Part shown: piece after piece, positions 20,199 to 58,163 of the stretch
Position numbering within the stretch: position 1 is the first letter of the stretch
Layout of the letters: each line of letters starts with the position of its first letter
IMG/VR virus record: IMGVR_UViG_3300027734_003164
Coordinates: 128,001 to 192,000 of that record
DNA from: a virus
Taxonomy: Duplodnaviria > Caudoviricetes
Direction: 5' to 3' (one strand)
DNA: 64,000 bases
The notes under the pieces: generated by a model
Databases searched by the model: none
Seen by the model: the letters and a program-made list of their open reading frames with translations, nothing else
Told to the model about the DNA's origin: nothing
Made by a program: the position numbers and the translations under genes

Positions 20199-23100
20199 TT
20201 ATACGTTGTCAAATGATGCTCCTGTTGGTGTAATAACAAACTCGATGTCAATGTATTCTAACGCTCTTGTTGGTTTCAAGTAAATCTTACCTGTAAGAGT
20301 GTTTGAGTCTAAATCTTCAGGTGTATTTGAAACTGTAACTCTAAAGTCAATTAAACCTCGGTCTCTTCTAATTGAATCCAAAATTGGATTTACTGAATCT
20401 AAGAAGTCTTGTCTTACTTTGTCATCATTTTGTTCAAATAACAATCTAATCGCCACTGCTGAAATTAACTTACGAGCTTGTAGTAATAATCTTCTAACAT
20501 TGATTCTGTCAAGTGCAGATTCTCTAATTTGTAGAGTTTTATTACCCCAAATTACTGTACCAACATCATTGAAAGTTGCAATTGGGTTGATTCTACCTTT
20601 ATATAATGTGTCTCTATCTTCTTGTGTCAACTTACGTCTCGCTCTAATTGCGTTTACAAGACCTCTCGTGTAACCCGCCGATGCGAACCAAGGGAATGCG
20701 ATGTTGTCTGTCAACGCTAAGTTTTTAGTAACTTCAGCCGTAGGTGGAAGATAAATTTGAGTGTTATTAACAGTATCTCTTGTTAATACCCAAGGATAAT
20801 AAGTAGCTGTGTAGTTAGAGTCAATACCTATATTTTCTAAGTTGTCAACCGCCTGTTGAGGATAAATTAACCCCTCTTCTATATTTTGGTAAGAAGGTAA
20901 GAATAAGTTAAAGTCAGGTGTAGTACAGATGTAAATTGAATCTGCTCTATCTTCCTCAATCAAATTAACCGCATCTTCAACTAAGTTACTGTTGTTTACA
21001 TAGTCAATTCCTGGTGTAACAAACACATTTATATTTGTAGATTCAGGATTAGAGAATGTTGATTGACCCCATTTGTAAGCGTAGTAGTCAGTGTTTGCCC
21101 AAGTCTCTTGGTTTGGTCCTGAAATTTGTTTGAACGCTCCCCAACCTGATGCTGTAGGATACGTTGCGGAAGCTGCTGCTCCTTGTTTGTATCCTGTCTG
21201 ACCTAACGCGAATGTATCTGCGTTTGTTCTTGACGCTCTATAAATATCCCAACCATCAAATCCGCCATAAGCATATAAAGTATATTTTCTCGTATTTAAG
21301 TTGTAATAAGGATTATCACTGTCTAAAGGTTCGCTCGAGAATGAACCTGCACCCACTTCAAACGCTGACTGACCTGAAGTAGCATAAGCGTTAGAAATAG
21401 TTACAATAGTAGCACCACTATCTAAGTGGAACCCTTTTGTTATATAACCCCAATCAGGACCTGTAGTATCAGTTGCGATATTTGTAGGAAGTTGTTTACC
21501 TTTGTATTCAAAGAAATCATAATCAACTCCTGTGATATTAGAAATACCTAAGTACGCTCTTCTAACATTTTCACCTGATGAAATTCTAATATTATCACCA
21601 CCGTTTGCAGAACCAAAAGGAGGATTGTCAATTTCATCACCCGCCTTTAAATATCTTGTTTTGTATATAACAAATGGAGGTGTTGCATTTGAGTATTCTC
21701 TCATGATGTAACCTTCAAACCCACAAGGAAGTGCGTCTGTTGGTGCTTCATCAGCCATTTCAATCATTAAGTATTTAGATTTTACTTGATATTCACCGTT
21801 AGAAGTACCAATTTTATTTGCTATAAAGTTATTTTGTGAAGGGTCTAATGAACAGTTTGTAAAACTTTCTATTACTCTTACGTTTTGGTCAGTATCATAA
21901 AAGTCTCTAACAAACACGTCAAAAGTATTGTTAGTGAAAGATACATTACCTATTGATATTTTTACAAGTCTATTAGCTGCGTTACCATCAGAAATCAATA
22001 CAAATTTAAATAACTTATAAACCAAATTACCTCTTAGTTCAGACACTAAGTAAGGTGTTTTAGGTGTTTGATATTGTTCTAAATAGAAACCAATAGTTTC
22101 AGTATTTAATGATTCGGCACTATCTAATTCAATTAAATCACAATACAAACCTCTAATTTTACTATTGTTATATCCCGAATTTAATAAACTTGGGTAAATT
22201 TCCTCAACAAAAATTGGAACTTCGTTTCTATCTTTTGCAAAATTTGATTTACCAAATAAACTTGACATGTAGTTAGAATTTGTAGACAACATTGAAGTTT
22301 CAAAACTAAATGTTTCAGAATCATATGTAATACCTGATATTACAAAAGTAGAATATGGGTCACTTGTAACTGCCGAATATGTACCAGTACATACCATTTG
22401 AACATTACTTGTTCCTGTAACCCAATATTGTGGTCCGTGTTGTGTTGAAGAATAAGAAGTAAGACCTCTTGAACGTAGTGTTGATACAACTAAATCATCC
22501 CATTCACTATAAGGTGAACCTGAATAGAATGTCATACCAATATTACATCTTCCTGAGAACACGCCTCCACCAAGAGATGACATTGCTCCGATTGAAGCCC
22601 CTAAACCGTATCCATAATATGAACCAACACTTTGAATTTTGTTATAATCAAATAATGCGTAGTACCACGTGTCATTTGTTCCCGCCGAAAGATTAGCTAA
22701 AGATAAATTAACATTATTAACTCCGAATGTTTCAGAAGTTGCAGTTACAGTATTTACTGAAGACCCTGAAACATATGTTAATGTATTTGCACTTAGAGTA
22801 CCCCAATAAATCGCAGTTTTTCCTGAAGTAGATGCACTCACACTAAAGCTATTAACGTTAGTAGAAATAAAGTTTTGAAAATCAGCATTTAATGTTGAAG
22901 TTCCTCCGTTATAAGTTGTGTATGTCCTATTAAAATCGGCACTTAATTGTGATGGAACAGATGTGATTGTTATGTTTGAACTTGTACCTGTAGTTCCTGT
23001 AAAGTTTAATGTAATACCTGTTGTGTTTCCTGTTGCCCTTATTGTTGCGGGATTTGGATTTGCAATAGTAACAACTGACCAAGACGGACCAGCATCGTAA

Positions 23101-23402
23101 CCTGATAATCCAAGTATTCTTGTTACAAATAATTGATTTGATTGACTTAAGTAAGCCTTTGCAATGTAAGACGCCTCATATTTTGGTATTTGTGTATTTA
23201 CAAATTTTTCAGGACTTGTTCCCCCAAAATAAACTTGATATTCGTCAAAGTTTGTTATGAAAATAGGTTCAAATGCGGGACCTTGTATGGTTTCACCGAC
23301 AATACCTAAAGTTGTTACACCAACGCTTTGTGCAACAAAAGTTAAATCTCTTTCTGAAGTGTAAACACCAGGTGAGACGAAAACCTTATTACTAGATGCC
23401 AT
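20199..23402 (-). CDS. Tail sheath protein (T4 gp18-like), 1067 aa
   Basis: N-terminal FVSPGVYTSERDL; C-terminal PWFASAGYTRG, INPI, WGNKTLQ, ALDRINVRRLL, P.RALEYI.I.F. Confidence 0.95.
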   Translation of the reverse strand: MASSNKVFVSPGVYTSERDLTFVAQSVGVTTLGIVGETIQGPAFEPIFITNFDEYQVYFGGTSPEKFVNTQIPKYEASYIAKAYLSQSNQLFVTRILGLSGYDAGPSWSVVTIANPNPATIRATGNTTGITLNFTGTTGTSSNITITSVPSQLSADFNRTYTTYNGGTSTLNADFQNFISTNVNSFSVSASTSGKTAIYWGTLSANTLTYVSGSSVNTVTATSETFGVNNVNLSLANLSAGTNDTWYYALFDYNKIQSVGSYYGYGLGASIGAMSSLGGGVFSGRCNIGMTFYSGSPYSEWDDLVVSTLRSRGLTSYSSTQHGPQYWVTGTSNVQMVCTGTYSAVTSDPYSTFVISGITYDSETFSFETSMLSTNSNYMSSLFGKSNFAKDRNEVPIFVEEIYPSLLNSGYNNSKIRGLYCDLIELDSAESLNTETIGFYLEQYQTPKTPYLVSELRGNLVYKLFKFVLISDGNAANRLVKISIGNVSFTNNTFDVFVRDFYDTDQNVRVIESFTNCSLDPSQNNFIANKIGTSNGEYQVKSKYLMIEMADEAPTDALPCGFEGYIMREYSNATPPFVIYKTRYLKAGDEIDNPPFGSANGGDNIRISSGENVRRAYLGISNITGVDYDFFEYKGKQLPTNIATDTTGPDWGYITKGFHLDSGATIVTISNAYATSGQSAFEVGAGSFSSEPLDSDNPYYNLNTRKYTLYAYGGFDGWDIYRASRTNADTFALGQTGYKQGAAASATYPTASGWGAFKQISGPNQETWANTDYYAYKWGQSTFSNPESTNINVFVTPGIDYVNNSNLVEDAVNLIEEDRADSIYICTTPDFNLFLPSYQNIEEGLIYPQQAVDNLENIGIDSNYTATYYPWVLTRDTVNNTQIYLPPTAEVTKNLALTDNIAFPWFASAGYTRGLVNAIRARRKLTQEDRDTLYKGRINPIATFNDVGTVIWGNKTLQIRESALDRINVRRLLLQARKLISAVAIRLLFEQNDDKVRQDFLDSVNPILDSIRRDRGLIDFRVTVSNTPEDLDSNTLTGKIYLKPTRALEYIDIEFVITPTGASFDNV

Positions 23403-44579: not shown

Positions 44580-45785
44580 ATGTTAGACTTGAATAATTTA
44601 ATACCTTTTAAAACACTTTTTGAAAGTGATAATAACGGGAGAGAAATTAATATTTACAAATTACATAATGTGCAATTTTATGAAAATAACATTTTTTATC
44701 CAAATGTGATATTAAAGTCTGAAAAAAACGACATAAAACCTATTAATGAAACGGTATTATCATTAAAGGAATTGGATTTTTCATCACATAATAAATCAAT
44801 GTTAGAAATAAAAGATAGAGATTCAAAACCTTATTTTTTCTTCATTTATAATACTGATAACTATTATCATTTTGTGTATGATACACTACCATATTTAATT
44901 ACGTTTTTTGAACTTAAAAAAGAAATCCCCGATTTACAACTTTTGATGAATTACCCTAATTACCAAAAGTTTGAACATTATAAATTTGTTATTGAATTTT
45001 TATATATTTTATCAATAAACAAAGATGATATTACAATTGTAAATCCATCTATCGCATATGATAATTTATACGTATCTAATTCATACACTCACGATGGTAA
45101 ATCAAATATTAAACCAAGAAATGAAGTTTACAAGTTTTACAATAATATGGTTAATTTTATAACTAATGATATTAAAAAAGAAAAATTACCGACAAAAATT
45201 TATATTTCCAGAAGAACATGGATTAATAAAGACACGTCAAATATAGGTACAAATTATACAACAAAAAGAAGATTATTAAATGAAGATGAGATTGTTGAGT
45301 ATTTAAAAACTAAAGGTTTTGTTGAAGTTTTTACTGAAAATCTTTCAACACCTGAGAAAATATTATTATTCAATAATGCGGAACACATTATAGGGCCGAT
45401 AGGTGGTGGGTTATGTAATGCACTATTTTCTAACAAAAAAACAAAATTAACAGTTTTAAATTCACCCACTTTTTTTGACATAAACTATCGGTTTTTATTT
45501 TCGTTTGAAAATGTTAATTATGAAATATTAGATATTTCTGAACATACAGAAAAAAGTAAAATAAAAAAATTCATGAGAGTTAAATTTGATAATAAAGTGG
45601 GTGAAGTGGTTGACATAGATGGTGATAATATTACTATTAATTATAGTGATATGGATGTTGCGGGGTGGAATAATCAAATTGAATTTAAACAAATTATTAA
45701 AAATATAATGGAACTAATCCCTTTAGATGACGGACTTAATTCTGAATGGATAATTGACATTAAAAAACTAAAAGAAATAATATGA
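44580..45785 (+). CDS. GT61 (DUF563-like) glycosyltransferase
   Basis: NYYHF..DTLP, IYISRR, LLNEDE, E.L...E.I.LF..A..I.GP.GGGL.N.LF. Confidence 0.75.
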   Translation: MLDLNNLIPFKTLFESDNNGREINIYKLHNVQFYENNIFYPNVILKSEKNDIKPINETVLSLKELDFSSHNKSMLEIKDRDSKPYFFFIYNTDNYYHFVYDTLPYLITFFELKKEIPDLQLLMNYPNYQKFEHYKFVIEFLYILSINKDDITIVNPSIAYDNLYVSNSYTHDGKSNIKPRNEVYKFYNNMVNFITNDIKKEKLPTKIYISRRTWINKDTSNIGTNYTTKRRLLNEDEIVEYLKTKGFVEVFTENLSTPEKILLFNNAEHIIGPIGGGLCNALFSNKKTKLTVLNSPTFFDINYRFLFSFENVNYEILDISEHTEKSKIKKFMRVKFDNKVGEVVDIDGDNITINYSDMDVAGWNNQIEFKQIIKNIMELIPLDDGLNSEWIIDIKKLKEII

Positions 45786-46600
45786 TTAATTATGTAATTT
45801 ATGGTCATACGGATTATTTAGACGTTTTAAATATCCAAACTGATTACTCACAAAATAAGGGACATTTGACTCTTTTTATAAATGAAAATAATTTAGAACT
45901 AACAGATTTATATGAAAAATATAATGAGGTTATTTTTTATGATGATAAGGGCACTTACGCAACGAGAGTTTTAAGTTGTTTAGAAAAAATAAAGTATGAT
46001 TATATTTTATTTTTTCACGATATTGACATTATATTAAAAAGTGATGATAGGACTATTGAAAAATTGTTTGAGTTTTTAAGAACAAATAATTTTGATAGGG
46101 TCGATTTAAAATTTTCAGATAAGATTAACCCATCGACAAAATTAATTAAAATAAATAATTTAGATGATATATCAGAATGGGAACATATTAATATGAGTGA
46201 AATTGAGAAAAAAAATAATATTCCGTATTTAATTGAACAGGACGATGTGACTAATTACATATATAATGTAAACCCGTCTATATGGAAAAAAGAATCTTTT
46301 ATTGATTTACTTAGTAATTTTAAACATAAAAATTATCGTACAATAGAAGACATTGATGTCCAAGAGTACTCAAAAAAATTCAAAATATTTAAAATGTTTT
46401 CAAACAAAAAACTAAATTGTGGGTATTTCCAATGCTTAGAAAGTTTTGTATACTTACATATAAGTCATAATGGTAAACTTTTACCATTAAATATGAATTT
46501 TGTTACAGTTTACGGTCAATCTTACCGTGATATAAGTAATGAATATATAAAAATTGTAGAAAAATATAATCTAATAAATTCAAATAAATGGTATAAATAA
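45782..46600 (+). CDS. Hypothetical GT-A-like protein (paralog of 47522..48331)
   Basis: YILFFHDIDI, FDRVDL, YNVNPSIWKKE shared with the paralog. Confidence 0.65.
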   Translation: MINYVIYGHTDYLDVLNIQTDYSQNKGHLTLFINENNLELTDLYEKYNEVIFYDDKGTYATRVLSCLEKIKYDYILFFHDIDIILKSDDRTIEKLFEFLRTNNFDRVDLKFSDKINPSTKLIKINNLDDISEWEHINMSEIEKKNNIPYLIEQDDVTNYIYNVNPSIWKKESFIDLLSNFKHKNYRTIEDIDVQEYSKKFKIFKMFSNKKLNCGYFQCLESFVYLHISHNGKLLPLNMNFVTVYGQSYRDISNEYIKIVEKYNLINSNKWYK

Positions 46601-46601
46601 T

Positions 46602-47525
46602 ATGAGCTTAGAACAATTAAAAGAATGTAAATACATTTCTAGTGTTGGAATGTTACTATCATTGGACGATAATAACATCATAACCTATCAGAAAGAACCT
46701 CACAGAATAACTCATGATTTCGTAAAATTATTAAATGGTAAAGATGGTGATTGCATCTACATTAAATTTGCATTTTTTACCCAATTTATACATCAAATTT
46801 TACCACAATTAAATTATAAATTTATATTAATCACGGGAGACGGAGATGAAACTATGCCTGACGATATGATTAGTCCTGAAATATTTAATAATATTATTAA
46901 TGACGCAAGACTAATACATTGGTATTCAGTAAACTGTAATGAACGTTATCATGAAAAATTTTCATTAATACCTATTGGTGTAAATTTCCATTCTCTAACA
47001 TTTGGTGAATTTTGCGGGTGGAGTAGTGGTGCGATGACACCAAAAGAACAAGAAGAAATGTTGGATTCCATAAAGAAAAAATCTGGAGAATTTTATCAAA
47101 GACAACCTAAATGTTACTCTAATTTTCATTTTGTAACATATTCGGAGTTTGGTAATCCGAGACAGGACGCCATTAACAAAATACCAAAGGACCTAATTTA
47201 TTATGAACCTTCATTAGTAGATAGAGAAACAACTTGGACAAAAAACGCAGAGTACGCATTTACCGTATCCCCAATGGGACATGGTATGGATTGTCATAGA
47301 ACATGGGAATCGTTAATGTTAGGTACAATTGTAATTGTAAAAAAATCTCAATTAGATAGTTTATATGAAGGGTTACCTGTACTTATCGTGGATGATTGGA
47401 GTGAAATTACACAAGATTTATTAGATAAGACAATTGAAGAATTTAAAAATAAAGAATTTAACTATGAAAGAATCACCCTAAAATATTGGGTAGATAAAAT
47501 CCGTAATACCCCATACCAAAAATGA
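46602..47525 (+). CDS. Exostosin (GT47)-like glycosyltransferase
   Basis: FTVSPMGHGMDCHRTWE.L.LG.I.IV...LY..LPVL.V.DW. Confidence 0.6.
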   Translation: MSLEQLKECKYISSVGMLLSLDDNNIITYQKEPHRITHDFVKLLNGKDGDCIYIKFAFFTQFIHQILPQLNYKFILITGDGDETMPDDMISPEIFNNIINDARLIHWYSVNCNERYHEKFSLIPIGVNFHSLTFGEFCGWSSGAMTPKEQEEMLDSIKKKSGEFYQRQPKCYSNFHFVTYSEFGNPRQDAINKIPKDLIYYEPSLVDRETTWTKNAEYAFTVSPMGHGMDCHRTWESLMLGTIVIVKKSQLDSLYEGLPVLIVDDWSEITQDLLDKTIEEFKNKEFNYERITLKYWVDKIRNTPYQK

Positions 47526-48331
47526 TATTTTTTGATGTAAAAAAATTTGAATTATCAGACAACACTCATATTGATAAATTGAAATTTGTCGTTTATAGTC
47601 ATTCTTCTTTCTTAGAGGTTTTAAAGATACAAATTGATTATTTAACCAATATTGGGGATATGATTTTAATCATAAATAAAAATGATGAAGACCTTAATGA
47701 AATCTATAATAGTTTTGAAAAAGTTATTTTTTATGATGATTCACAACCATATGGTTACCGTTTATTAAGTACTATTGAAGAAGTTCCCTATGATTATTTT
47801 ATTTTCATACACGATAATGATATTGTATTTCATATTGATGTAGAAAAAGTAAAAAGTATGTTTACCTTTTTGCGTAAAAATAACTATGATAGAGTAGATT
47901 TTCAATTAGCATATGATTTTGATACTCTAAAAGGTCACGAAATAATGGATGACGAGTTATATTATATTAAATCGTCAAATACTGATACAGCAAATAAAGG
48001 TTATCCATATAATGTAAATCCATCAATATGGAAAAAAGAAACATTACTTGACATAATGAATAAATTTGGATTTAGGGATTATAGAACAATTGAACACCCT
48101 GAAACTCAAAACTACGCAGTTAATTTTAACATCTTTAAACTTTTTTCAAAAAACAAATATCAATGCGGATATTTTATTTGTATGGAGCCGTTTAGATATA
48201 TTCACATAACACATAGTCAGAAATATTTAAATATAAACTCATTACCTATTGGCTCTTGTGAAGACATTAAAGATGAATACGAAAAAATAGTAAATAAATA
48301 TAATTTAAAAAATTCAAGTAAATGGATGTAA
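47522..48331 (+). CDS. Hypothetical GT-A-like protein (paralog of 45782..46600)
   Basis: YFIFIHDNDI, YDRVDF, YNVNPSIWKKE. Confidence 0.65.
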   Translation: MIFFDVKKFELSDNTHIDKLKFVVYSHSSFLEVLKIQIDYLTNIGDMILIINKNDEDLNEIYNSFEKVIFYDDSQPYGYRLLSTIEEVPYDYFIFIHDNDIVFHIDVEKVKSMFTFLRKNNYDRVDFQLAYDFDTLKGHEIMDDELYYIKSSNTDTANKGYPYNVNPSIWKKETLLDIMNKFGFRDYRTIEHPETQNYAVNFNIFKLFSKNKYQCGYFICMEPFRYIHITHSQKYLNINSLPIGSCEDIKDEYEKIVNKYNLKNSSKWM

Positions 48332-50000: not shown

Positions 50001-51455
50001 ATGAAAGTTGCACTATTAATTGCCGGTTATATAAGAAATTATGAAACAAGTATTGAGTTTATACAGAATGAGATAATTAAAAAATTTGACAATGTTGATG
50101 TATATTTACACATTACAAAAAGTGAAAATATTGAGGATAAATACCTAAATCAAATAGAGGATTCGGATATTCAAAAAATAGTGGAAGGGCTCAACCCAAT
50201 AACCACTATTGTTGAAAATAACCAATTATATGTTGATGACAATAGAATTAATAATGTAATAAATCTTTGGGCTAAGTTGTATAAACTAAATGAAATAAAA
50301 TCTATCCGAGAATCGGAATCAACCGATTATGATTTAGTAATACGTTACCGATTAGATTTAAACATTCTAACTAAGAATCTATTTGGCATCTTAATTGAGG
50401 ATGATATTGTATATCTACCTTTAGATGCTAAAATGGATAAAACCAGACTTACTAATTCTGACGATGGATACCTTTGTGATGCTCTCGCATTTGGTAGGTC
50501 AAAAATAATGAATAAATATTTTGATATTTATGAATTTTATGGTAATAAATTTTTACCTGTATCTGAAACATCGTTATTTGAATATTTAACAAATAATAAT
50601 ATTTGTTTCAAACAAATAGACATTAAATATAACTTCTTATTGTCTAAGTGTAATATTTTTGCAATTTGCGGCGATTCAGGCTCAGGAAAATCTACATTAA
50701 GCACACTATTAAAAAATTGTTATAATAATTCTTTCACTTTAGAATGTGATAGGTATCATAAATGGGAGCGTCATAATAAAAATTGGGAGCAAACAACTCA
50801 TTTAAACCCAAAAGCAAATTACATCACCAAAATGGAAGAAGATATTTTTAATTTAAAATTAGGTAATGAAATTTATCAAGTAGATTACGACCATCACAGT
50901 GGAAAGTTTACTGAAAAGCAATTAATTAACCCATCGGATAATCTCATAGTTTGTGGATTACATAGTTTGTATGGGGATAATAATCTTTATGATTTAAAAA
51001 TTTTCATGGACACTGATAATGAGTTGAAAAAAAAATGGAAAGTTAAACGTGACGTATTAGAAAGAGGATATAGTATCGATAAAGTATTGGAAAGTATCGA
51101 AAAAAGACAGAAAGACTTCAATATGTTTATAAAACCTCAAAGAGAAAATGCCGACCTTGTAGTACGTTTTTTTAGTAAAGATGAAATAGATTACACTAAT
51201 TTAAATAATAAAGAATCCTTAAGTTTAGAAATTTCAATAGGAGAAAACTGTAAAAACCTAAAAACCGTTTTAAAAGACCTTGAAGATTTAAATATTGAGT
51301 ATAGATTTAAAAAAAATAATAATTTTATAAGTATAATTTTTGACGAGTACACGGAACTAAACGTTAAAGACGGAGGTTTTTTAACTAATAACAAAACAAA
51401 TAGTTTTTACGACATAATACTATATCTTATTTTTCATCTCAACTTTACTGTTTAA
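50001..51455 (+). CDS. Fusion: putative glycosyltransferase-like domain plus phosphoribulokinase/uridine-kinase-family kinase
   Basis: N-half KVALLIAG..R...DVY.H...YDLVIRYRLD; C-half GDSGSGKST, DRYH, NPKAN, YDH.SG, GLH, WK..RD..ERG...I.PQ...ADLV (PRK-like). Confidence 0.75.
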   Translation: MKVALLIAGYIRNYETSIEFIQNEIIKKFDNVDVYLHITKSENIEDKYLNQIEDSDIQKIVEGLNPITTIVENNQLYVDDNRINNVINLWAKLYKLNEIKSIRESESTDYDLVIRYRLDLNILTKNLFGILIEDDIVYLPLDAKMDKTRLTNSDDGYLCDALAFGRSKIMNKYFDIYEFYGNKFLPVSETSLFEYLTNNNICFKQIDIKYNFLLSKCNIFAICGDSGSGKSTLSTLLKNCYNNSFTLECDRYHKWERHNKNWEQTTHLNPKANYITKMEEDIFNLKLGNEIYQVDYDHHSGKFTEKQLINPSDNLIVCGLHSLYGDNNLYDLKIFMDTDNELKKKWKVKRDVLERGYSIDKVLESIEKRQKDFNMFIKPQRENADLVVRFFSKDEIDYTNLNNKESLSLEISIGENCKNLKTVLKDLEDLNIEYRFKKNNNFISIIFDEYTELNVKDGGFLTNNKTNSFYDIILYLIFHLNFTV

Positions 51456-51479
51456 TTTTTTTATCTTATTTTTCTTAAA

Positions 51480-52151
51480 ATGAAGTTATTCAAAAATAAT
51501 ACTATTAAAAAACTTATCAACTTATCTAATCAAATAAGTAAGTATTGTGTTGGTATGGAGGGTAATGTGTCAGGAAAAGATGGTGATTTTTTCTACATAA
51601 AGGCAAGCGGTAGCCATCTTTATGAGTTAGGTTTAAATGATTTAGTAAAATATGACTTTAATGGTAATCAGTTAAATAATTTTAAAAAAAAAGGTAGTAT
51701 GGAGTTAGGATTTCATACCTTTTTACTTACTTATGAAAATATAAATTTTATTTCCCATACACACCCCAGTAAGACAGTTTCAATACTATCAAGTGATAAA
51801 ATTTTAGAATTTGCCAATGAACGCATATTTCCTGACCAAGTTATTTTTAATGGGGAAAAATCATGTATAGTTCCTTATGCAAAACCAGGGGATGAACTAA
51901 CGAAATTTATTAAAAAATATGTCACAGAATTTATTAATGAAAATAATACATTTCCTAAATTAATTTTACTTCAAAATCACGGCATTATCGCATGTGGTTC
52001 TACAATTGAAGAGTGTACGATAATTTCAGACATTTGTGAAAAGTCTGCAGAAATTTTTCTAAGTTCACCTAAAATAAATTTTCTTAGAAAACAAGACATA
52101 AATAGTTTGTTAGATGACGAAAAAGAAAAATATAGAAAATCATTATTATGA
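51480..52151 (+). CDS. Class II aldolase / epimerase family protein
   Basis: EGNVS, SME..FH, HTHP, NHG Zn-binding motifs. Confidence 0.85.
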   Translation: MKLFKNNTIKKLINLSNQISKYCVGMEGNVSGKDGDFFYIKASGSHLYELGLNDLVKYDFNGNQLNNFKKKGSMELGFHTFLLTYENINFISHTHPSKTVSILSSDKILEFANERIFPDQVIFNGEKSCIVPYAKPGDELTKFIKKYVTEFINENNTFPKLILLQNHGIIACGSTIEECTIISDICEKSAEIFLSSPKINFLRKQDINSLLDDEKEKYRKSLL

Positions 52152-52867
52152 ATAGAGAAGGAATAAGTTTAGGTTGGAATTGCTCCGCAGCCCAAGAAGC
52201 GTTGTCAATTGGATTACGAAAAAATAAATCTGATGGATATAACACTTGTCCATTTGATATGATGATATCAAATTATGTAGGTCTTTGTGAATGTATTAAG
52301 GACGACTTTAAACATTTTTGTGACCCCAAATATATAGAACTACGTCCGGCGCCTAAAATGAACAAACATATACCAAATCAAAAAGATGATGAATTATGGG
52401 TTTATAATACATATTATAATTTTGTATTTAATCACGAATCTCCATATCATGGCAATCTTTATTTAAATGAAACTTGGTCTAGTCCTTATCATTTTGTTGA
52501 AAATGATTTTAAAAATTTTATAGAAAGATATAGTAAAAGAATAGAAAGTTTTAGAAACTATTTAAATGGTAATAATTTTATTGATTTTGTTTTAGTTCGT
52601 TATAATTCAGTACCTTATGAATTAGAAAATATTATAAAAGAAAAATACCCAAACTTAAAATTTAAGATACATACAATATCAAGATTTACAAATAATAATA
52701 TTGGACATTTATATAATTGTACAATTGATGGAGGCGTTAGTTATGAAATGGATTATTTGGAATATATGGGCATAAATCAAAATAATAACCCAATGGAAAT
52801 AAAAAGATACCTTTCTGATTTTAATAATTTAATCGGAGATATAAATGAAAATATAACAATAATATGA
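52148..52867 (+). CDS. DUF1796-like (putative papain-like) protein
   Basis: ISLGWNC......GLR....PFD. Confidence 0.55.
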   Translation: MNREGISLGWNCSAAQEALSIGLRKNKSDGYNTCPFDMMISNYVGLCECIKDDFKHFCDPKYIELRPAPKMNKHIPNQKDDELWVYNTYYNFVFNHESPYHGNLYLNETWSSPYHFVENDFKNFIERYSKRIESFRNYLNGNNFIDFVLVRYNSVPYELENIIKEKYPNLKFKIHTISRFTNNNIGHLYNCTIDGGVSYEMDYLEYMGINQNNNPMEIKRYLSDFNNLIGDINENITII

Positions 52868-53163
52868 ATTTAAAAGTAATATATGTTGACATAGATGAGA
52901 CTATTTGTAAAACGTCTGAGGATAGGAAGTATGAAAACTCAACTCCAATCTATGAAAATATTGAAAAAATAAATAATCTATACGAACAGGGACATACTAT
53001 AGTTTACTGGACCGCTAGAGGTAGTAGAAAACAATTAAACTGGTATGATTTAACATATAATCAATTAAATATGTGGGGTGCCAAGTTTCATGAATTAAGG
53101 GTCGATAAACCATATTATGATGTCTTTGTAGATGATAAAACACTAAGAATTGAAGAAATATGA
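52864..53163 (+). CDS. Small HAD phosphatase (EcbF/BcbF capsule-biosynthesis type)
   Basis: VDIDETIC, YWTARG, KP..D.FVDDK; 99 aa. Confidence 0.8.
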   Translation: MNLKVIYVDIDETICKTSEDRKYENSTPIYENIEKINNLYEQGHTIVYWTARGSRKQLNWYDLTYNQLNMWGAKFHELRVDKPYYDVFVDDKTLRIEEI

Positions 53164-53615
53164 AAATTATATCTCACAGAGGAAACATAAACGGACCTAT
53201 ACCAAAAAAAGAAAATAGACCATCGTATATTGATTCGGCAATACAACTCGGATATGAGGTTGAAATTGACTTAAGGGTTATTAATAATGAGTTTTGGTTA
53301 GGTCATGACGAACCTCAATATAAAATTGAATTGTTATGGATGCGTTTAAGAAAAGAAAAATTATGGTTTCATTGTAAAGATATGGAATCCGCACTTATGT
53401 TAGCTTCATTAGATGATGATTTTAAATATTTTTGCCATTCATCTGAACCTTACGTTTGTACAAGTCATAAATATCTATGGATTCATGATTTAACATCAGG
53501 AATAAATGATAAATGCATAATTCCTCTTTTATCTAAAGATGATATTATGAACTATAAAAACAATAAACCTTACGCGATATGTACCGATTTTGTTAACACT
53601 ATAACTTTAAAATGA
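53160..53615 (+). CDS. GDPD / PLC-like phosphodiesterase-family protein
   Basis: ISHRGN...EN, VEIDL, GHD.P, HCKD. Confidence 0.7.
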   Translation: MKIISHRGNINGPIPKKENRPSYIDSAIQLGYEVEIDLRVINNEFWLGHDEPQYKIELLWMRLRKEKLWFHCKDMESALMLASLDDDFKYFCHSSEPYVCTSHKYLWIHDLTSGINDKCIIPLLSKDDIMNYKNNKPYAICTDFVNTITLK

Positions 53616-53817
53616 AAAAAATTTTAATAGTAGTTAGTGGTGAATGTTTTAAAAGTGGTGGTAGTAACAATAGAAACAGGGGAGATAATGAGTTTTCAAA
53701 TGAACAACAAAAAATAGCAATAGAATCACATATATAGTAGAAAATTGTAACTATTATGACGATTTAAGACTTAATGAGTTTTTAGAAAATCCAGATTTAT
53801 ATAAATTTTACACATGA
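53612..53817 (+). pseudogene. Internally deleted gene: 41-aa N-terminal piece plus out-of-frame 28-aa C-terminal piece
   Basis: MKKILIVVSGECFKSGG...SHI* (53612..53737) begins with an ATGA overlap; a second frame YIVENCNYYDDLRLNEFLENPDLYKFYT* ends in an ATGA overlap with 53814. Confidence 0.7.
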
Positions 53818-54710
53818 GAAATAATGTTATTTTAATTCCCCCAAACCACGCTTTTGGTGATGTTTTGTCTGCAATTAGTATGGTTTATTATCTATTATCG
53901 TATTATAAAAAAGTTTACTTTTACATTAAAGTTGAAAGAGAAAATTATGCGGTTCCTAACTACTATAATCATTATTTTAGGTTTGACCCTTTGTTTAATC
54001 ATAGAATTTTTATTACAGTTAATGCTGATGAATTAATAAATAATTCACAATATGGAGAATACGATATTATTAATATGTCAACAGGAGATTGGCAATCAGC
54101 AAAAACTGATTTTTATAAAGAAACAAAAATAGATAAAAGTTTTTATTTTAATGATTTAAATCCGTTATATAACTCTTTAAATATTCCAGTTGAGCATCAA
54201 ACAAACCCCAATACTCATTTACCAAATCAAAATGTTGAAGTAAATCATTTATTTTATTATAAATTAATTGGATTAAACAATAATGTAAGGATGAATTATT
54301 TTAATTATTATAGAAACATAGAACATGAAATGCAATTTTCTAAAATTGTATTGGAGAGACATGGTTTACAATTAGGGGATAAATATAATATTGTAAATAA
54401 TCCAGTAGGGGGAGCACAGGTAGTTCAAAATAGAATTAATAACAATTACCCAATCATAAATATTAGTCACGCATCTCCTTGTATAGGTTATCTTATGTCA
54501 TTAGTTGAAAACGCAGAAAGTATTCATTTTATAGAAGGTAATAATGTAAATTTTTTCTATCATTCACAATATAAAGGTATTTTTAAATACAATAAAATAA
54601 TAAATTTTTATGTTTATCTTAGAAACAGAAATTGGGAAGGGTTTAATTTAGATTATGCATGGAAAATGATGGATGAACCGAGACTACAGAATTGGAACTT
54701 TTTATTTTAA
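53814..54710 (+). CDS. Hypothetical glycosyltransferase-like protein
   Basis: HAFGDV N-terminal motif reminiscent of GT-B enzymes; operon context. Confidence 0.5.
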   Translation: MRNNVILIPPNHAFGDVLSAISMVYYLLSYYKKVYFYIKVERENYAVPNYYNHYFRFDPLFNHRIFITVNADELINNSQYGEYDIINMSTGDWQSAKTDFYKETKIDKSFYFNDLNPLYNSLNIPVEHQTNPNTHLPNQNVEVNHLFYYKLIGLNNNVRMNYFNYYRNIEHEMQFSKIVLERHGLQLGDKYNIVNNPVGGAQVVQNRINNNYPIINISHASPCIGYLMSLVENAESIHFIEGNNVNFFYHSQYKGIFKYNKIINFYVYLRNRNWEGFNLDYAWKMMDEPRLQNWNFLF

Positions 54711-54727
54711 AAAACAAAATTAAAAAA

Positions 54728-56278
54728 ATGAAAAATAATATACACCTAATTATCCCCATGTCGGGGATAGGAAAAAGATTTATCGATTATGGATATGACA
54801 CACCCAAACCACTTATTGAAGTAGACGGTAAACCAATTATTGAACACGTAGTAGGATTATTTCCAGGTATTGAAAAACTTTCTTTTATATGCAATCAAAC
54901 ACATTTAAGGGACACAAATATGAGGAAAATTTTAAATAAAATAGCCCCTAATTCAAATATTATTGAAGTTCCTGATAATATGAAAAAGGGACCAGTCTAT
55001 GCAGTTTCAAAAGTATTTGACCATATTGATGATAATGAAGAAGTAATTTTTAGTTATTGTGACTATAGTAGTGTTTGGGATTTTAAAAAATTTTTAAAAG
55101 AAAAAGATAATTATGATGGGTTAATACCCTCATACATTGGATTTCATCCTCATATGTTAGGTTCAGATAATTACGCATTTTCAAAAATGGATGGTGACTA
55201 CGTAAAAGAAATACGAGAAAAACGACCATTCACCGATAATAAAATGAATGAGTATGCATCAAATGGCACGTATTATTTTAAATCAGGCTCAATGGTTAAA
55301 AAATACTTCAAAGATTTAATTGATTTAGATATAAATGTTAATGGTGAGTATTATATAAGTTTAGTATATAATTTATTAATACAGGATGGTTTAAAAGTTG
55401 GTGTTTTTGAAATAGATAAAATGCTGCAGTGGGGAACTCCTTATGATTTAGAGGTTTATAAAAAATGGTCTAATTTTTTTAAAAAACCAAAAATGAAAAC
55501 AGTTAACACCCCAAAAGACACAACACTGGTATTACCAATGGCCGGAGACGGTAGTAGATTCAAAGAAGAAAAATACACATTACCAAAACCATTATTAGAT
55601 GTTAATGGAGTTCCTATGGTGATTAATGCCGTCAACGATTTACCATTATGTAATGATAAAATCTTCATAGTAAAAAATGAACACATTAATGAATATGGTA
55701 TAGATGAGGTTATAAAAAAACATTTTGACTCAAAAATTATTCGGATAGATACATTAACTGAAGGTCAAGCATGTACCTGTGAAATAGGTCTAAAAGATTT
55801 TGATGAAAACAAACCGATACTCATTTCCGCATGTGATAATGGAATATACTACGACACCAAAATGTGTCAAGAATTATTGATGGATGAATCAATAGATGTT
55901 TTAGTATGGTCATTTAGGAATAACCAAACAAGTAAGGTGAACCCTAATGCCTATGCGTGGTTAAAGGTTAATTCCGATAATAATATAGAACACGTATCTT
56001 GTAAAAAATTTATTTATGATGACCCACTAAAAACTCATGCGATAATAGGAACTATGTTTTTTAGAAAGGCGAAGTATTTTTTAGAAGGATTACAAAAAAA
56101 TATTAAAGAAAATATACGTACAAATAATGAGTTCTATGTTGATGACGTATTAAATCAAAACATTAAAGATGGTCTTACTGTTAAAGTTTTTGAAGTTGAG
56201 GATTATATATGTTGGGGAACACCTAACGACTATAAAACTTATAATTACTGGAAAGAGTATTTTGATAGGAGTAAATAA
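54728..56278 (+). CDS. Tandem double nucleotidyltransferase (two NTP_transferase domains)
   Basis: IIPMSGIGKRF..GY..PKPLI...WGTPYDL and VLPMAGDGSRF...Y..PKPLL...WGTPNDY; start set at MKNNIH. Confidence 0.85.
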   Translation: MKNNIHLIIPMSGIGKRFIDYGYDTPKPLIEVDGKPIIEHVVGLFPGIEKLSFICNQTHLRDTNMRKILNKIAPNSNIIEVPDNMKKGPVYAVSKVFDHIDDNEEVIFSYCDYSSVWDFKKFLKEKDNYDGLIPSYIGFHPHMLGSDNYAFSKMDGDYVKEIREKRPFTDNKMNEYASNGTYYFKSGSMVKKYFKDLIDLDINVNGEYYISLVYNLLIQDGLKVGVFEIDKMLQWGTPYDLEVYKKWSNFFKKPKMKTVNTPKDTTLVLPMAGDGSRFKEEKYTLPKPLLDVNGVPMVINAVNDLPLCNDKIFIVKNEHINEYGIDEVIKKHFDSKIIRIDTLTEGQACTCEIGLKDFDENKPILISACDNGIYYDTKMCQELLMDESIDVLVWSFRNNQTSKVNPNAYAWLKVNSDNNIEHVSCKKFIYDDPLKTHAIIGTMFFRKAKYFLEGLQKNIKENIRTNNEFYVDDVLNQNIKDGLTVKVFEVEDYICWGTPNDYKTYNYWKEYFDRSK

Positions 56279-56284
56279 AATTAT

Positions 56285-57262
56285 ATGAAAAAAGCACTAA
56301 TAACTGGCATAAATGGTCAGGACGGCTCTTACTTAGCCGAATTATTAATAAGTAAAAACTATGAGGTTTGGGGTACAGTTAAACGTAACTCGGTTTCTGA
56401 AACACAATCCAGTAGAATTGAGCACTTACGGGAAAATAATTTAGTAAATTTAGAATATGCCGATTTAAGTGATATGGCATCTTTAGTAAGAGTCATATCT
56501 AAAGTACAACCTGATGAGGTATATAATTTGGCAGCACAATCACACGTTAGAATAAGTTTTGACCAACCATTATATACTGCAAATGTGACAGGTATTGGTA
56601 CTTTAAACTTATTGGAAGCGGTTAGATTAGTTTCCCCACATTCTAAAATATACCAAGCGTCCTCTTCGGAGATGTTTGGTAATACCATTGATGATGACGG
56701 GTTTCAAAGAGAGACGACCCCAATGAATCCAGTTTCACCATATGGTTGTGCTAAAGTTTTTTCATATAACATATGCAGAAATTATAGAAACTCATATGGT
56801 ATGAAAATATGGAACGGAATTTTATTTAATCATGAATCACCTAGACGAGGGACCAATTTTGTTACTAATAAAGTCGTTAAAGCTGCTGTTAGAATAAGTC
56901 TTGGGTTGCAAGACAAATTGGAAATAGGTAATTTAGATGCGACTAGAGATTGGGGACATGCAAAAGATTACGTTTACGCAATGTGGTTAATGTTGCAATC
57001 TGAAAAGCCAGATGATTATGTTTGCTCAACAGGTATTTCACATTCTGTTAGAGATTTATGTGGTTATGTTTTTAATTCGCTTGGGTTAAATTTTTTAGAC
57101 TATGTTTTAGTTGACGAAAAACATTTTAGACCTGAAGAGTTAGAAAACTTAAAAGGCGATTCTTCAAAACTTAGGTCGGAGTTATTTTGGGAACCAAAAT
57201 ACACGTTTGAGTCAATGTTAGATGAAATGATTAAATATTGGTTAGACTATTATGGAAAATAA
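56285..57262 (+). CDS. gmd: GDP-mannose 4,6-dehydratase
   Basis: LITGINGQDGSYLAE, YNLAAQSHV, YQASSSE, SPYGCAK, FNHESPRRG..FVT.K, RDWGHA.DY. Confidence 0.97.
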   Translation: MKKALITGINGQDGSYLAELLISKNYEVWGTVKRNSVSETQSSRIEHLRENNLVNLEYADLSDMASLVRVISKVQPDEVYNLAAQSHVRISFDQPLYTANVTGIGTLNLLEAVRLVSPHSKIYQASSSEMFGNTIDDDGFQRETTPMNPVSPYGCAKVFSYNICRNYRNSYGMKIWNGILFNHESPRRGTNFVTNKVVKAAVRISLGLQDKLEIGNLDATRDWGHAKDYVYAMWLMLQSEKPDDYVCSTGISHSVRDLCGYVFNSLGLNFLDYVLVDEKHFRPEELENLKGDSSKLRSELFWEPKYTFESMLDEMIKYWLDYYGK

Positions 57263-58163
57263 AATTTTAGTAACAGGAGGGAATGGTTTAGTTGGTCGGG
57301 AATTTGTGGGAGAACAATATTACAAACCAACATCAAAAGAATATAATCTAAAAAATACAGATGACGTAAATCGTTTAATGTTAAAAAGATTTGACAGTGT
57401 AATTCACACTGCAGGTAAAGTTGGTGGGTTAGGAGGGAATATGAATCACAAGGGAGATTTTTTTTATGATAATATTATGATAAATACAAATGTGATTGAA
57501 TCCTCTAGAATCTCCGGAGTAAAAAATTTAGTAGCCTTTTTATCTACATGTGTGTTTCCCGATAATTTAGATTACCCATTAACTGAAAAAAAAATACACA
57601 TGGGACCTCCTCATTTTTCAAATGATGCTTACGCATACGCAAAACGTATGGTTGATGTTCAAATACGGGCATATAAAGAACAATACGGTTTAAATTATAA
57701 ATCAGTCATACCTACTAATATTTATGGTCCAAACGATAATTATGACATTAAAAATGGTCACGTAATTCCTTCACTAATACATAAATGTTATTTAGCGAGA
57801 GAACATAAAACACCACTAACTATTTGGGGTAGTGGGAATCCGCTAAGAGAGTTTATTTTTAGTAGAGATGTTGCTAAATTAACCGAGTGGGTTCTTTTTA
57901 ACTATGACGAAAATGAACCAATAATACTTTCTACCTCGGAGGAGATTTCAATAAAAGAAGTTGTGGGTATAATAGTCGAAATTATGAATTTTAAAGGTGA
58001 AGTTAAGTTTGATACAACAAAACCTGACGGACAATATAGAAAACCTTCAGACAACTCCAAAATTAAAAGTTATTTACCTGACTTTAATTTTACAAACCTT
58101 TTTGATGGATTAAAAGAAACTATTGAATATTTTGAAAAATACTATAATGTTGTAAGAAAATAA
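57252..58163 (+). CDS. fcl: GDP-L-fucose synthase
   Basis: VTGGNGLVG, KVGG.G.N, FLSTCVFP, YAYAKR, TNIYGPNDN, HVIP.L, WG.G.PLREF, KPDG. Confidence 0.95.
   Translation: MENKILVTGGNGLVGREFVGEQYYKPTSKEYNLKNTDDVNRLMLKRFDSVIHTAGKVGGLGGNMNHKGDFFYDNIMINTNVIESSRISGVKNLVAFLSTCVFPDNLDYPLTEKKIHMGPPHFSNDAYAYAKRMVDVQIRAYKEQYGLNYKSVIPTNIYGPNDNYDIKNGHVIPSLIHKCYLAREHKTPLTIWGSGNPLREFIFSRDVAKLTEWVLFNYDENEPIILSTSEEISIKEVVGIIVEIMNFKGEVKFDTTKPDGQYRKPSDNSKIKSYLPDFNFTNLFDGLKETIEYFEKYYNVVRK

Follow-up and report, generated by a model that had tools for sequence, protein, structure and literature searches.

Why would a tailed phage carry a kinase of the phosphoribulokinase (PRK) type, fused to a glycosyltransferase-like domain and coupled to a run of genes for sugar phosphates and nucleotide transfer? 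The question is raised by a cassette at positions 50001-56278 of a 64,000-nt stretch of viral DNA (the window hereafter; one strand, positions 128,001-192,000 of IMG/VR record IMGVR_UViG_3300027734_003164), whose coordinates coincide exactly with open reading frame (ORF) boundaries. The window is a piece of a large, low-GC (25-35%) tailed phage genome with genes for tail sheath (20199-23402), baseplate hub, DNA polymerase, and PhoH. A DNA-level search against isolated phages found no close relative, and the nearest virus record compared (G001) is without the cassette region. The cassette sits on the plus strand in a glycan island of ~38-62 kb, which holds at least 8 glycosyltransferase-like genes and a GDP-fucose route, and all genes within 12 kb of the kinase are glycan genes. 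We lean towards an answer in which the cassette represents the form that a widespread, uncharacterised six-function module takes in phages, a module that would make a nucleotide-linked sugar from the pentose-phosphate pool, for use by the glycosyltransferases of the surrounding 25-kb glycan island. The genes of the cassette are as follows.

50001-51455, plus strand: 484-residue fusion of a predicted GT-A (WavE/TOD1-like) domain (residues 1-212) with a PRK-type P-loop kinase (residues ~215-484); PF00485 and structure prediction
51480-52151, plus strand: class II aldolase/adducin-fold metalloenzyme; PF00596, E = 9e-25
52148-52867, plus strand: DUF1796 protein, accessory; PF08795, E = 3.3e-9
52864-53163, plus strand: capless 99-residue HAD phosphatase; HAD motifs, TIGR01689 under its cut-off
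53160-53615, plus strand: minimal GDPD/PI-PLC-like phosphodiesterase of 151 residues, starting MKIISHRG; predicted structure, motifs, and hhalign
53612-53737, plus strand: ORF of 41 residues, probably an N-terminal gene remnant; tblastn
53814-54710, plus strand: GT-B-like putative glycosyltransferase of 298 residues, virus-specific and accessory; Atlas structural neighbours
54728-56278 (alternative start TTG 54692), plus strand: tandem nucleotidyltransferase, with NT-A at residues ~1-255 and NT-B at ~256-516; PF12804 and PF00483

Four-nucleotide start/stop overlaps at 52148, 52864, and 53160 couple the aldolase-fold, DUF1796, HAD, and GDPD-like genes, in line with the original prediction for this region, which was made from the sequence alone and described the genes as coupled. 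The only intergenic gap of the cassette lies at 53616-53813. Two genes had escaped that prediction, i.e. the GT-B-like gene (53814-54710) and the 41-residue remnant (53612-53737).

The first gene of the cassette encodes the kinase. Residues 219-394 of the fusion protein match the PRK family (PF00485, E = 2.5e-34, 119 bits against a cut-off of 22), and the kinase was compared with Calvin-cycle PRKs and with Udk by relative phmmer and profile hidden Markov model scores. Against solved structures, phmmer gives 118 bits for the Synechococcus PRK 6hzk (E = 4e-33) and 84-110 bits for other solved plant-type, cyanobacterial, and archaeal PRKs, compared with 42 bits for uridine kinase (E = 5e-10). The Walker A P-loop (GDSGSGKS) is found at residues 224-231, and D250 and H298 align with D42 and H90 of 6hzk—i.e. 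the PRK catalytic dyad, which corresponds to Asp57/His105 in the plant-type enzyme CrPRK (PMC9978339). The P-loop is invariant across 27 homologues with 50-87% identity, as are D250, H253, R257, Y296, H298, R350, D351, and R355. Judged by these scores and by the intact dyad, the kinase is of the PRK type and not of the uridine-kinase type, as had been proposed. It scores 182 bits with the curated phosphoribulokinase model NF005655, under the cut-off of 236, and is for this reason treated here as a PRK-type sister group rather than as a proven PRK; Udk models reach 75-81 bits (cut-offs 180-220). Residues 1-212 have no Pfam match and are predicted with high confidence to adopt a GT-A fold, for which the nearest folds are GT6, LgtC, WavE, and TOD1/MUCI70-like proteins. 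The claim of a glycosyltransferase-like domain fused to a PRK-like kinase is thus borne out by PF00485, the dyad, and the predicted fold.

The company this kinase keeps was determined in 80 viral and 80 bacterial or archaeal loci around the kinase, counting neighbours within 10 kb, and in a reverse count of 80 viral loci centred on the double nucleotidyltransferase. The double nucleotidyltransferase accompanies the kinase in 72 of the 80 viral loci and in 68 of the 80 bacterial or archaeal ones. In the reverse direction, 69/80 viral loci have the kinase, and of the 11 nucleotidyltransferase loci that lack it, nearly all lie on short contigs or are cut off at a flank, L222 being the one with full flanks. 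With either gene type accepted, all six functions of the module are found together in 66/80 viral loci, and in 51 of the 56 with full flanks. Counted singly and with either gene type, the aldolase is present in 74/80 viral loci, HAD in 76/80, and the GDPD-like enzyme in 73/80 (as well as in 70/80 bacterial or archaeal loci). The small HAD (58/80 viral loci) and a bacterial-type HAD_2 (18/80) are never found together, and the same is true of two GDPD-like types (58 and 15 of the 80 viral loci, respectively), a non-orthologous replacement that points to selection on the function rather than on the gene.

Of the transferases, the GT61-like one has the closest link to the cassette, its gene being found in 74/80 viral loci. 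By comparison, the GDP-fucose genes (56285-58163) are found in only 15-20 of the 80 and are therefore best seen as a separate, optional module outside the core. Fusions also vary among loci: NT-A and NT-B are fused or separate (separate and adjacent genes in some bacteria), NT-NT-GDPD fusions reach ~740 residues, and the kinase is joined to either a GT-A or a GT-C domain. The co-occurrence is far beyond chance, and the genes form one conserved pathway module. The original prediction had set co-occurrence elsewhere as a test that could refute it, and the genes stand together in most of the 160 viral, bacterial, and archaeal loci.

More than 1,500 homologues of the fusion protein are found. Full-length GT-A::PRK fusions occur in at least 120 IMG/VR stretches and almost exclusively on viral contigs, several of which measure 295-407 kb and some of which are binned as giant viruses. 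For the double nucleotidyltransferase, 228 IMG/VR stretches were counted. No match to this fusion was found among 50,697 isolated phage records. As such, the view that the pathway is unusual for a phage holds for isolated phages, but not for the at least 120 IMG/VR stretches, nor for two cultured cyanophages that have a kinase-less version.

Copies of the cassette without the kinase, all of which belong to cyanophages (Bellamy, S-SM2, and psbA-bearing contigs), bear on what the cassette may use as input. Among the same isolated phage records, 20 match the double nucleotidyltransferase, and 19 of these are Synechococcus phages. For example, cyanophages Bellamy and S-SM2 (Kyanoviridae) carry a block in the order double nucleotidyltransferase, GT61-like, aldolase, small HAD, and GDPD-like, with 36-62% identity, and S-SM2 also has a stand-alone GT-A gene, unlike the fusion in the window. 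No PF00485 match was found in the complete genomes of Bellamy and S-SM2, while control genomes were positive. Seven metagenomic relatives share the kinase-less arrangement. The photosystem genes psbA/psbD are present in all five kinase-less contigs tested, which are 10-34% complete, and in none of three kinase-bearing viral genomes (95-98% complete). Cyanobacteria produce ribulose 1,5-bisphosphate in bulk, and the absence of the kinase from phages of hosts that make this compound suggests that ribulose 1,5-bisphosphate, or a close Calvin-cycle metabolite, is the input of the cassette. On the simplest reading, viruses of other hosts must supply the kinase themselves.

Several cyanophage genes are labelled as phosphoheptose isomerases (L162:12285-12593; L163:10300-10611 and 11941-12270; RefSeq entries of Bellamy and S-SM2). 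Their products are 47-62% identical to the small HAD of the window, and the Bellamy and S-SM2 genes are likely mis-annotated. The same label is carried by an S-SKS1 gene (L305:7371-7727). Separately, loci binned as a planctomycete (L253) and an archaeon (L254) have a kinase-less cassette of the cyanophage type, and these may be mis-binned phage contigs.

What would the partners of the kinase do? The aldolase-fold protein scores 88 bits with PF00596 (cut-off 22), and N29, S43, G44, S73, E75, H93, H95, and H167 are invariant among 77 viral and bacterial orthologues; by mapping onto FucA, we take these to be a zinc site (three His and a Glu) and phosphate-binding Asn, Ser-Gly, and Ser residues. 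All curated models remain under their cut-offs, with FucA_Meth scoring best (51 bits, cut-off 250), followed by AraD models (27-45 bits, cut-offs 251-389) and MtnB (40 bits, cut-off 137). The fold named in the original prediction is therefore upheld and the epimerase assignment is not; epimerase, aldolase, and dehydratase are all candidate reactions.

The HAD protein was predicted to be of the EcbF/BcbF type, and here too the family stands while the subfamily does not. The DxDxT, T, K, and D motifs are all present (D9, D11, T13, T50, K82, and D91 invariant), yet TIGR01689, the EcbF-BcbF model, scores it at 32 bits (cut-off 162), and the name therefore denotes resemblance rather than membership. 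The proposed link with Escherichia coli K4 and Haemophilus influenzae type e capsules could not be verified, and a genome scan with the small-HAD profile did not bring up any capsule locus of Pasteurella or E. coli. K4 fructosylation requires KfoE (review PMC8858990, which does not show whether KfoE or its neighbours resemble the cassette proteins). Small capless HADs (L253-L301) are frequent in single-cell genomes of SAR11 (Pelagibacteraceae), in Prochlorococcus, and in metagenome-assembled genomes of Chitinophagaceae, all without other cassette genes, which indicates that this protein is a general-purpose part.

The GDPD-like assignment is confirmed by structure prediction. The model has a predicted local distance difference test (pLDDT) score of 95, and the top 13 PDB matches are all GDPDs (E = 1.4e-3 to 0.03; template-modelling (TM) scores 0.4-0.59). 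The HR, ExD, and HD motifs are invariant (H6, R7, E35, D37, H49, and D50), and the profile aligns with that of a bacterial cassette protein labelled as PLC/GDPD family in RefSeq (hhalign probability 94.5%, E = 8e-8). At 151 residues, the protein is far shorter than the usual 220-250.

The tandem protein proves to be the double nucleotidyltransferase that had been proposed, with two NTP_transferase domain stretches (PF00483/PF12804; 48.8 bits against a cut-off of 27, and 36.2 against 21.2) and signatures in both. Specifically, both halves retain the G-x-G-x-R-F, K-P, and C-D motifs across 16 homologues, with G13, R17, K27, and D112 invariant in NT-A and G273, G275, R277, K287, and D370 in NT-B. 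With these signatures intact in each half, the protein is likely to carry out two nucleotidyl transfers. None of the equivalog cut-offs for RmlA, GlmU, GalU, IspD, and MurU is reached, and the nearest solved relatives include HddC, a heptose-1-phosphate guanylyltransferase (5xhw, 6jq8). The real start of the gene is probably ATG 54728 rather than TTG 54692, because homologues align from the former.

Relatives of the nucleotidyltransferase domains occur in other fusions. In phages, they are joined to domains resembling 3,4-dihydroxy-2-butanone-4-phosphate synthase, which uses ribulose 5-phosphate, or to HAD_2 domains (L305:4995-6422 of Synechococcus phage S-SKS1, and Atlas clusters), and a bacterial Atlas cluster with 82 members has such a relative fused to a RuBisCO-large-chain-like domain. 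Fusions with domains of the ribulose-phosphate type hint that this clade may be specialised for substrates derived from ribulose phosphate.

Bacteria and archaea have a cassette with the same core and different transferases. The kinase domain is 33-46% identical to that of the phage, the aldolase is orthologous (hhalign 99.9%), the NT-A/NT-B pair is 37-48% identical, and a HAD phosphatase is also present. Unlike the phage kinase with its GT-A domain, however, the bacterial kinase is fused to a ~400-residue GT87/MptA-like (GT-C) membrane domain. For example, the E. coli IncR plasmid NZ_CP145712 (NZ_CP145712.1) has all six functions annotated in one operon, Hirschia baltica plasmid pHbal01 has the phosphodiesterase, kinase, HAD, and aldolase together, and Clostridium sp. 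LS has the aldolase, the nucleotidyltransferase pair, the kinase, and the HAD. A common origin of the phage GT-A domain and the 400-residue bacterial N-terminal domain was ruled out (hhalign probability 0.1%), and so was the idea that the C-terminal extension of the bacterial aldolase is a hidden GDPD-like or HAD domain.

Bacterial loci also contain GtrA (36/80), a GtrB-like GT2 (69/80), and the GT-C domain (78/80), all of which are found in 0/80 viral loci when searched with the E. coli plasmid proteins. The Gtr-type three-component glycosylation is thus absent from the phage form, which has soluble GT-A and GT61-like transferases instead, and the GT61-like gene is in turn missing from nearly all of the 80 bacterial or archaeal loci. 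In the bacterial form, the sugar would be passed on via a lipid carrier, and the presence of the GtrB-like GT2 argues for a true glycosyl nucleoside diphosphate (NDP) as donor.

How could these enzymes work together? The PRK-type kinase would phosphorylate C1 of ribulose 5-phosphate, giving ribulose 1,5-bisphosphate, a step suggested by the conserved catalytic and substrate residues together with the dispensability of the kinase in cyanophages. From family chemistry, the HAD may then take off one phosphate, probably the 5-phosphate, making furanose ring closure possible, and the zinc-dependent class II aldolase-fold enzyme, whose family acts on ketose 1-phosphates, may reset the stereochemistry of a ketose 1-phosphate or isomerise it. 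Transfers by NT-A and NT-B and one phosphodiester cleavage by the GDPD-like enzyme would lead to the final donor. The anomeric carbon of a ketose is C2, whereas PRK places its phosphate on C1; this phosphate must therefore either be made anomeric, by isomerising the sugar to an aldofuranose, or be shifted to C2. We prefer the migration route for the sole reason that it uses every conserved enzyme. In its speculative detail, NT-A would form an NDP-1-ketose, the PLC/GDPD-like enzyme would shift the phosphate to the anomeric C2 via a 1,2-cyclic phosphate, and NT-B would activate the 2-phosphate to an NDP-ketofuranose of the ribulose or xylulose type. In the phage, the donor would be used by the GT-A domain, the GT61-like protein, and other soluble transferases, with a virion protein or a glycan of the host surface as candidate acceptor. 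In the bacterial form, this core would instead feed the GtrB-like GT2, GtrA, and the kinase-fused GT-C domain.

A number of points weigh against this pathway. To our knowledge, phosphate migration is without precedent in sugar-nucleotide synthesis, and we know of no class II aldolase-fold member that gives the isomerisation needed by the aldose route. The pathway is proposed here from genes, from which the sugar cannot be read, and the activated ribulose or xylulose of the original prediction is thus a candidate product. The cyanophage argument rests on one related (Kyanoviridae-like) group. The substrate of a sister-group kinase could differ from that of PRK, sedoheptulose 7-phosphate being one candidate, and the role of the kinase may be something else altogether. 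It is also odd that the first enzyme of a pathway should be fused to a terminal transferase, and with two unrelated transferase folds. A bolder statement of our reading, which we consider doubtful, is that ribulose 1,5-bisphosphate is the entry metabolite of a nucleotide-sugar pathway common to jumbo phages, giant-virus-like contigs, bacteria, and archaea, in which two nucleotidyl transfers and a cyclic-phosphodiesterase step would give an NDP-pentulofuranose, the first such neutral-ketose donor, with phages of heterotrophs bringing their own PRK and cyanophages using the host pool.

The cassette can also be read in other ways. The logic of ADP/GDP-heptose synthesis, in which a kinase, a HAD, and a nucleotidyltransferase act in turn, could apply here if ribulose 1,5-bisphosphate were converted to the 1,5-bisphosphate of ribofuranose or arabinofuranose, as in the archaeal ribose-1,5-bisphosphate isomerase reaction run backwards, if the HAD then removed the 5-phosphate, and if a nucleotidyltransferase made an NDP-pentofuranose, leaving the second nucleotidyltransferase a regulatory role or a second sugar. 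HddC is among the nearest solved relatives, plant GT61 enzymes transfer pentoses and a GT61-like gene accompanies most viral loci (74/80), and the bacterial GtrB-like GT2 requires a glycosyl-NDP, all of which fit such a route. However, Pfam and NCBIfam profiles detect no MtnA/e2b2-type isomerase or SIS domain in the cassette, the GDPD-like enzyme of 73/80 viral and 70/80 bacterial loci is left without a role, and a second nucleotidyltransferase domain, catalytically intact by its motifs, goes unexplained. We therefore regard this route as unlikely. No more probable is a phosphodiester donor akin to those of teichoic acids, in which a pentulose, or a polyol derived from it, would be activated at a non-anomeric phosphate (compare CDP-ribitol, CDP-glycerol, and CDP-6-fructose) and transferred as a sugar phosphate, with the GDPD-like enzyme trimming or remodelling the product. 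PRK does phosphorylate a non-anomeric carbon, GDPD enzymes act on phosphodiesters of this kind, and there are weak matches to IspD-type cytidylyltransferases (PF01128, E = 4e-7; 1vgw) and, at 46602-47525, to RXYLT1_C; but Pfam finds no TagF, LicD, or fukutin-type phosphotransferase in the island, the conserved core is without a reductase, and the bacterial GtrB/DPM1-type GT2, GtrA, and GT-C handle glycosyl rather than phosphoglycosyl transfer.

If the substrate of the kinase were another ketose phosphate, such as xylulose 5-phosphate or sedoheptulose 7-phosphate (which would give the 1,7-bisphosphate), a heptose, a heptulose, or another sugar would result in place of a ribulose-derived one, which the score under the PRK equivalog cut-off would allow. 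The cyanophage argument is compatible with this, as sedoheptulose 1,7-bisphosphate also belongs to the Calvin cycle, and GenBank labels on neighbouring cyanophage genes name heptose enzymes. Yet all residues aligned to the PRK dyad and substrate positions are invariant, there is no SIS or GmhA domain, and the phosphoheptose isomerase labels fall on the small HAD and appear to be mis-annotations; a different substrate is accordingly less probable again. That the genes share no pathway at all, and are independent auxiliary metabolic genes gathered in a hypervariable island, we find very improbable. Phage glycan islands are mosaic, and the DUF1796, GT-B-like, and GDP-fucose genes do come and go among loci (present in 12-20 of 80), but the six functions co-occur in viruses, bacteria, and archaea despite changes in order, fusions (NT-NT, NT-NT-GDPD, and GT::PRK), and non-orthologous replacement, and the co-occurrence counts contradict independence. 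The reading towards which we lean is that of a six-function module for a nucleotide-linked sugar.

The remaining genes of the cassette are accessory. The DUF1796 assignment was correct (PF08795, 37 bits against a cut-off of 23), and the gene is present in only 12/80 viral loci, a rarity that places it outside the conserved core. Its product is 95% identical to the copy in locus L082, above most of the flanking cassette genes (62-95% to L082). Among the Atlas structural neighbours of the 298-residue GT-B-like protein are GT9, GT28, and pyruvyl-transferase folds, together with a viral cluster annotated as glycosyltransferase (TM 0.82). Its gene is found in 19/80 viral loci, and lies between the HAD and GDPD-like genes in L082, L085, L090, and L107. 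In the window, it follows the GDPD-like gene beside the remnant ORF and the gap at 53616-53813, and L084, L088, and L093 do not have it. The 41-residue ORF runs across the stop codon of the GDPD-like gene and probably represents what a rearrangement left of a longer gene: tblastn aligns it at 44% over 41 residues to the start of intact 275-292-residue genes in related viral contigs (L146:15981-16859 and L188:5549-6373). A Pfam search up to E = 1 left the GDPD-like protein, the GT-B-like protein, and four neighbouring unassigned proteins without a match. The neighbours of the cassette that recur in relatives, or that follow it directly, are given below.

44580-45785, plus strand: GT61-like glycosyltransferase; PF04577, E = 3.7e-20
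45782-46600, plus strand: 272-residue protein, paralogue of 47522-48331; co-occurrence, no Pfam match
47522-48331, plus strand: 269-residue paralogue of 45782-46600; co-occurrence
56285-58163, plus strand: GDP-mannose 4,6-dehydratase and Fcl-like epimerase/reductase (GDP-fucose route), directly downstream and intact; PF16363, E = 5e-120, and PF01370, E = 8e-45

The protein of 45782-46600 is near the cassette in 58/80 viral loci and that of 47522-48331 in 57/80. Both align at 40-60% identity to one and the same gene of relatives, which often have just a single copy. The match between them, at 46602-47525, is to RXYLT1_C (ribitol xylosyltransferase, dystroglycan pathway) and is weak (E = 0.002, 17.9 bits against a cut-off of 27).

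A full-text literature search found no paper describing the cassette, although the EcbF/BcbF query was swamped by unrelated abbreviations. All of the enzyme families are already known, as are nucleotide-sugar cassettes in phage glycan islands. What is new is the combination of enzymes, a PRK-type kinase as the proposed first step, the soluble GT-A::PRK architecture in phages, and the loss of the kinase that is specific to cyanophages. If our reading is true, a Calvin-cycle enzyme has a second widespread job, feeding glycan synthesis in nonphotosynthetic bacteria, archaea, and large viruses. A further sugar-activation route would join a short known list, and might explain rare ketose or pentofuranose residues in bacterial polysaccharides. 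For phage biology, the cassette offers a testable case of a virus that carries its own precursor supply, or drops this supply when the host provides the metabolite, and cyanophages S-SM2 and Bellamy and the E. coli IncR plasmid are culturable systems for a direct test.

Set against known systems, the kinase is closest to the Calvin-cycle PRKs (6hzk, 6kev; archaeal 5b3f), to which it is ~35% identical over the catalytic core. Like them, it retains the P-loop, the Asp/His dyad, and the conserved Arg and Tyr positions; unlike them, it is fused to a glycosyltransferase domain and located in a phage glycan island rather than beside RuBisCO. In ribofuranosylation that depends on phosphoribosyl pyrophosphate (Bcs3 of H. 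influenzae type b; O-antigen ribofuranosyltransferases), a HAD-type phosphatase removes the distal phosphate of a pentose-phosphate-derived donor, and this makes a small capless HAD plausible in a glycan locus. That route differs in using a phosphoribosyltransferase fold, with no nucleotidyltransferase, PRK, or aldolase-fold enzyme. The synthesis of ADP/GDP-glycero-manno-heptose (GmhA, HldE/HddA, GmhB, HldC/HddC) follows the same logic from the pentose-phosphate pathway, i.e. a bisphosphate, then a HAD, then a nucleotidyltransferase. However, its kinase is of the PfkB or GHMP type and its isomerase GmhA is a SIS protein, while Pfam and NCBIfam give no match to SIS, PfkB, or GHMP among the cassette proteins. 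In their place, the cassette has a P-loop PRK-type kinase, and in addition it carries a class II aldolase-fold enzyme, a GDPD-like enzyme, and a second nucleotidyltransferase domain with intact motifs.

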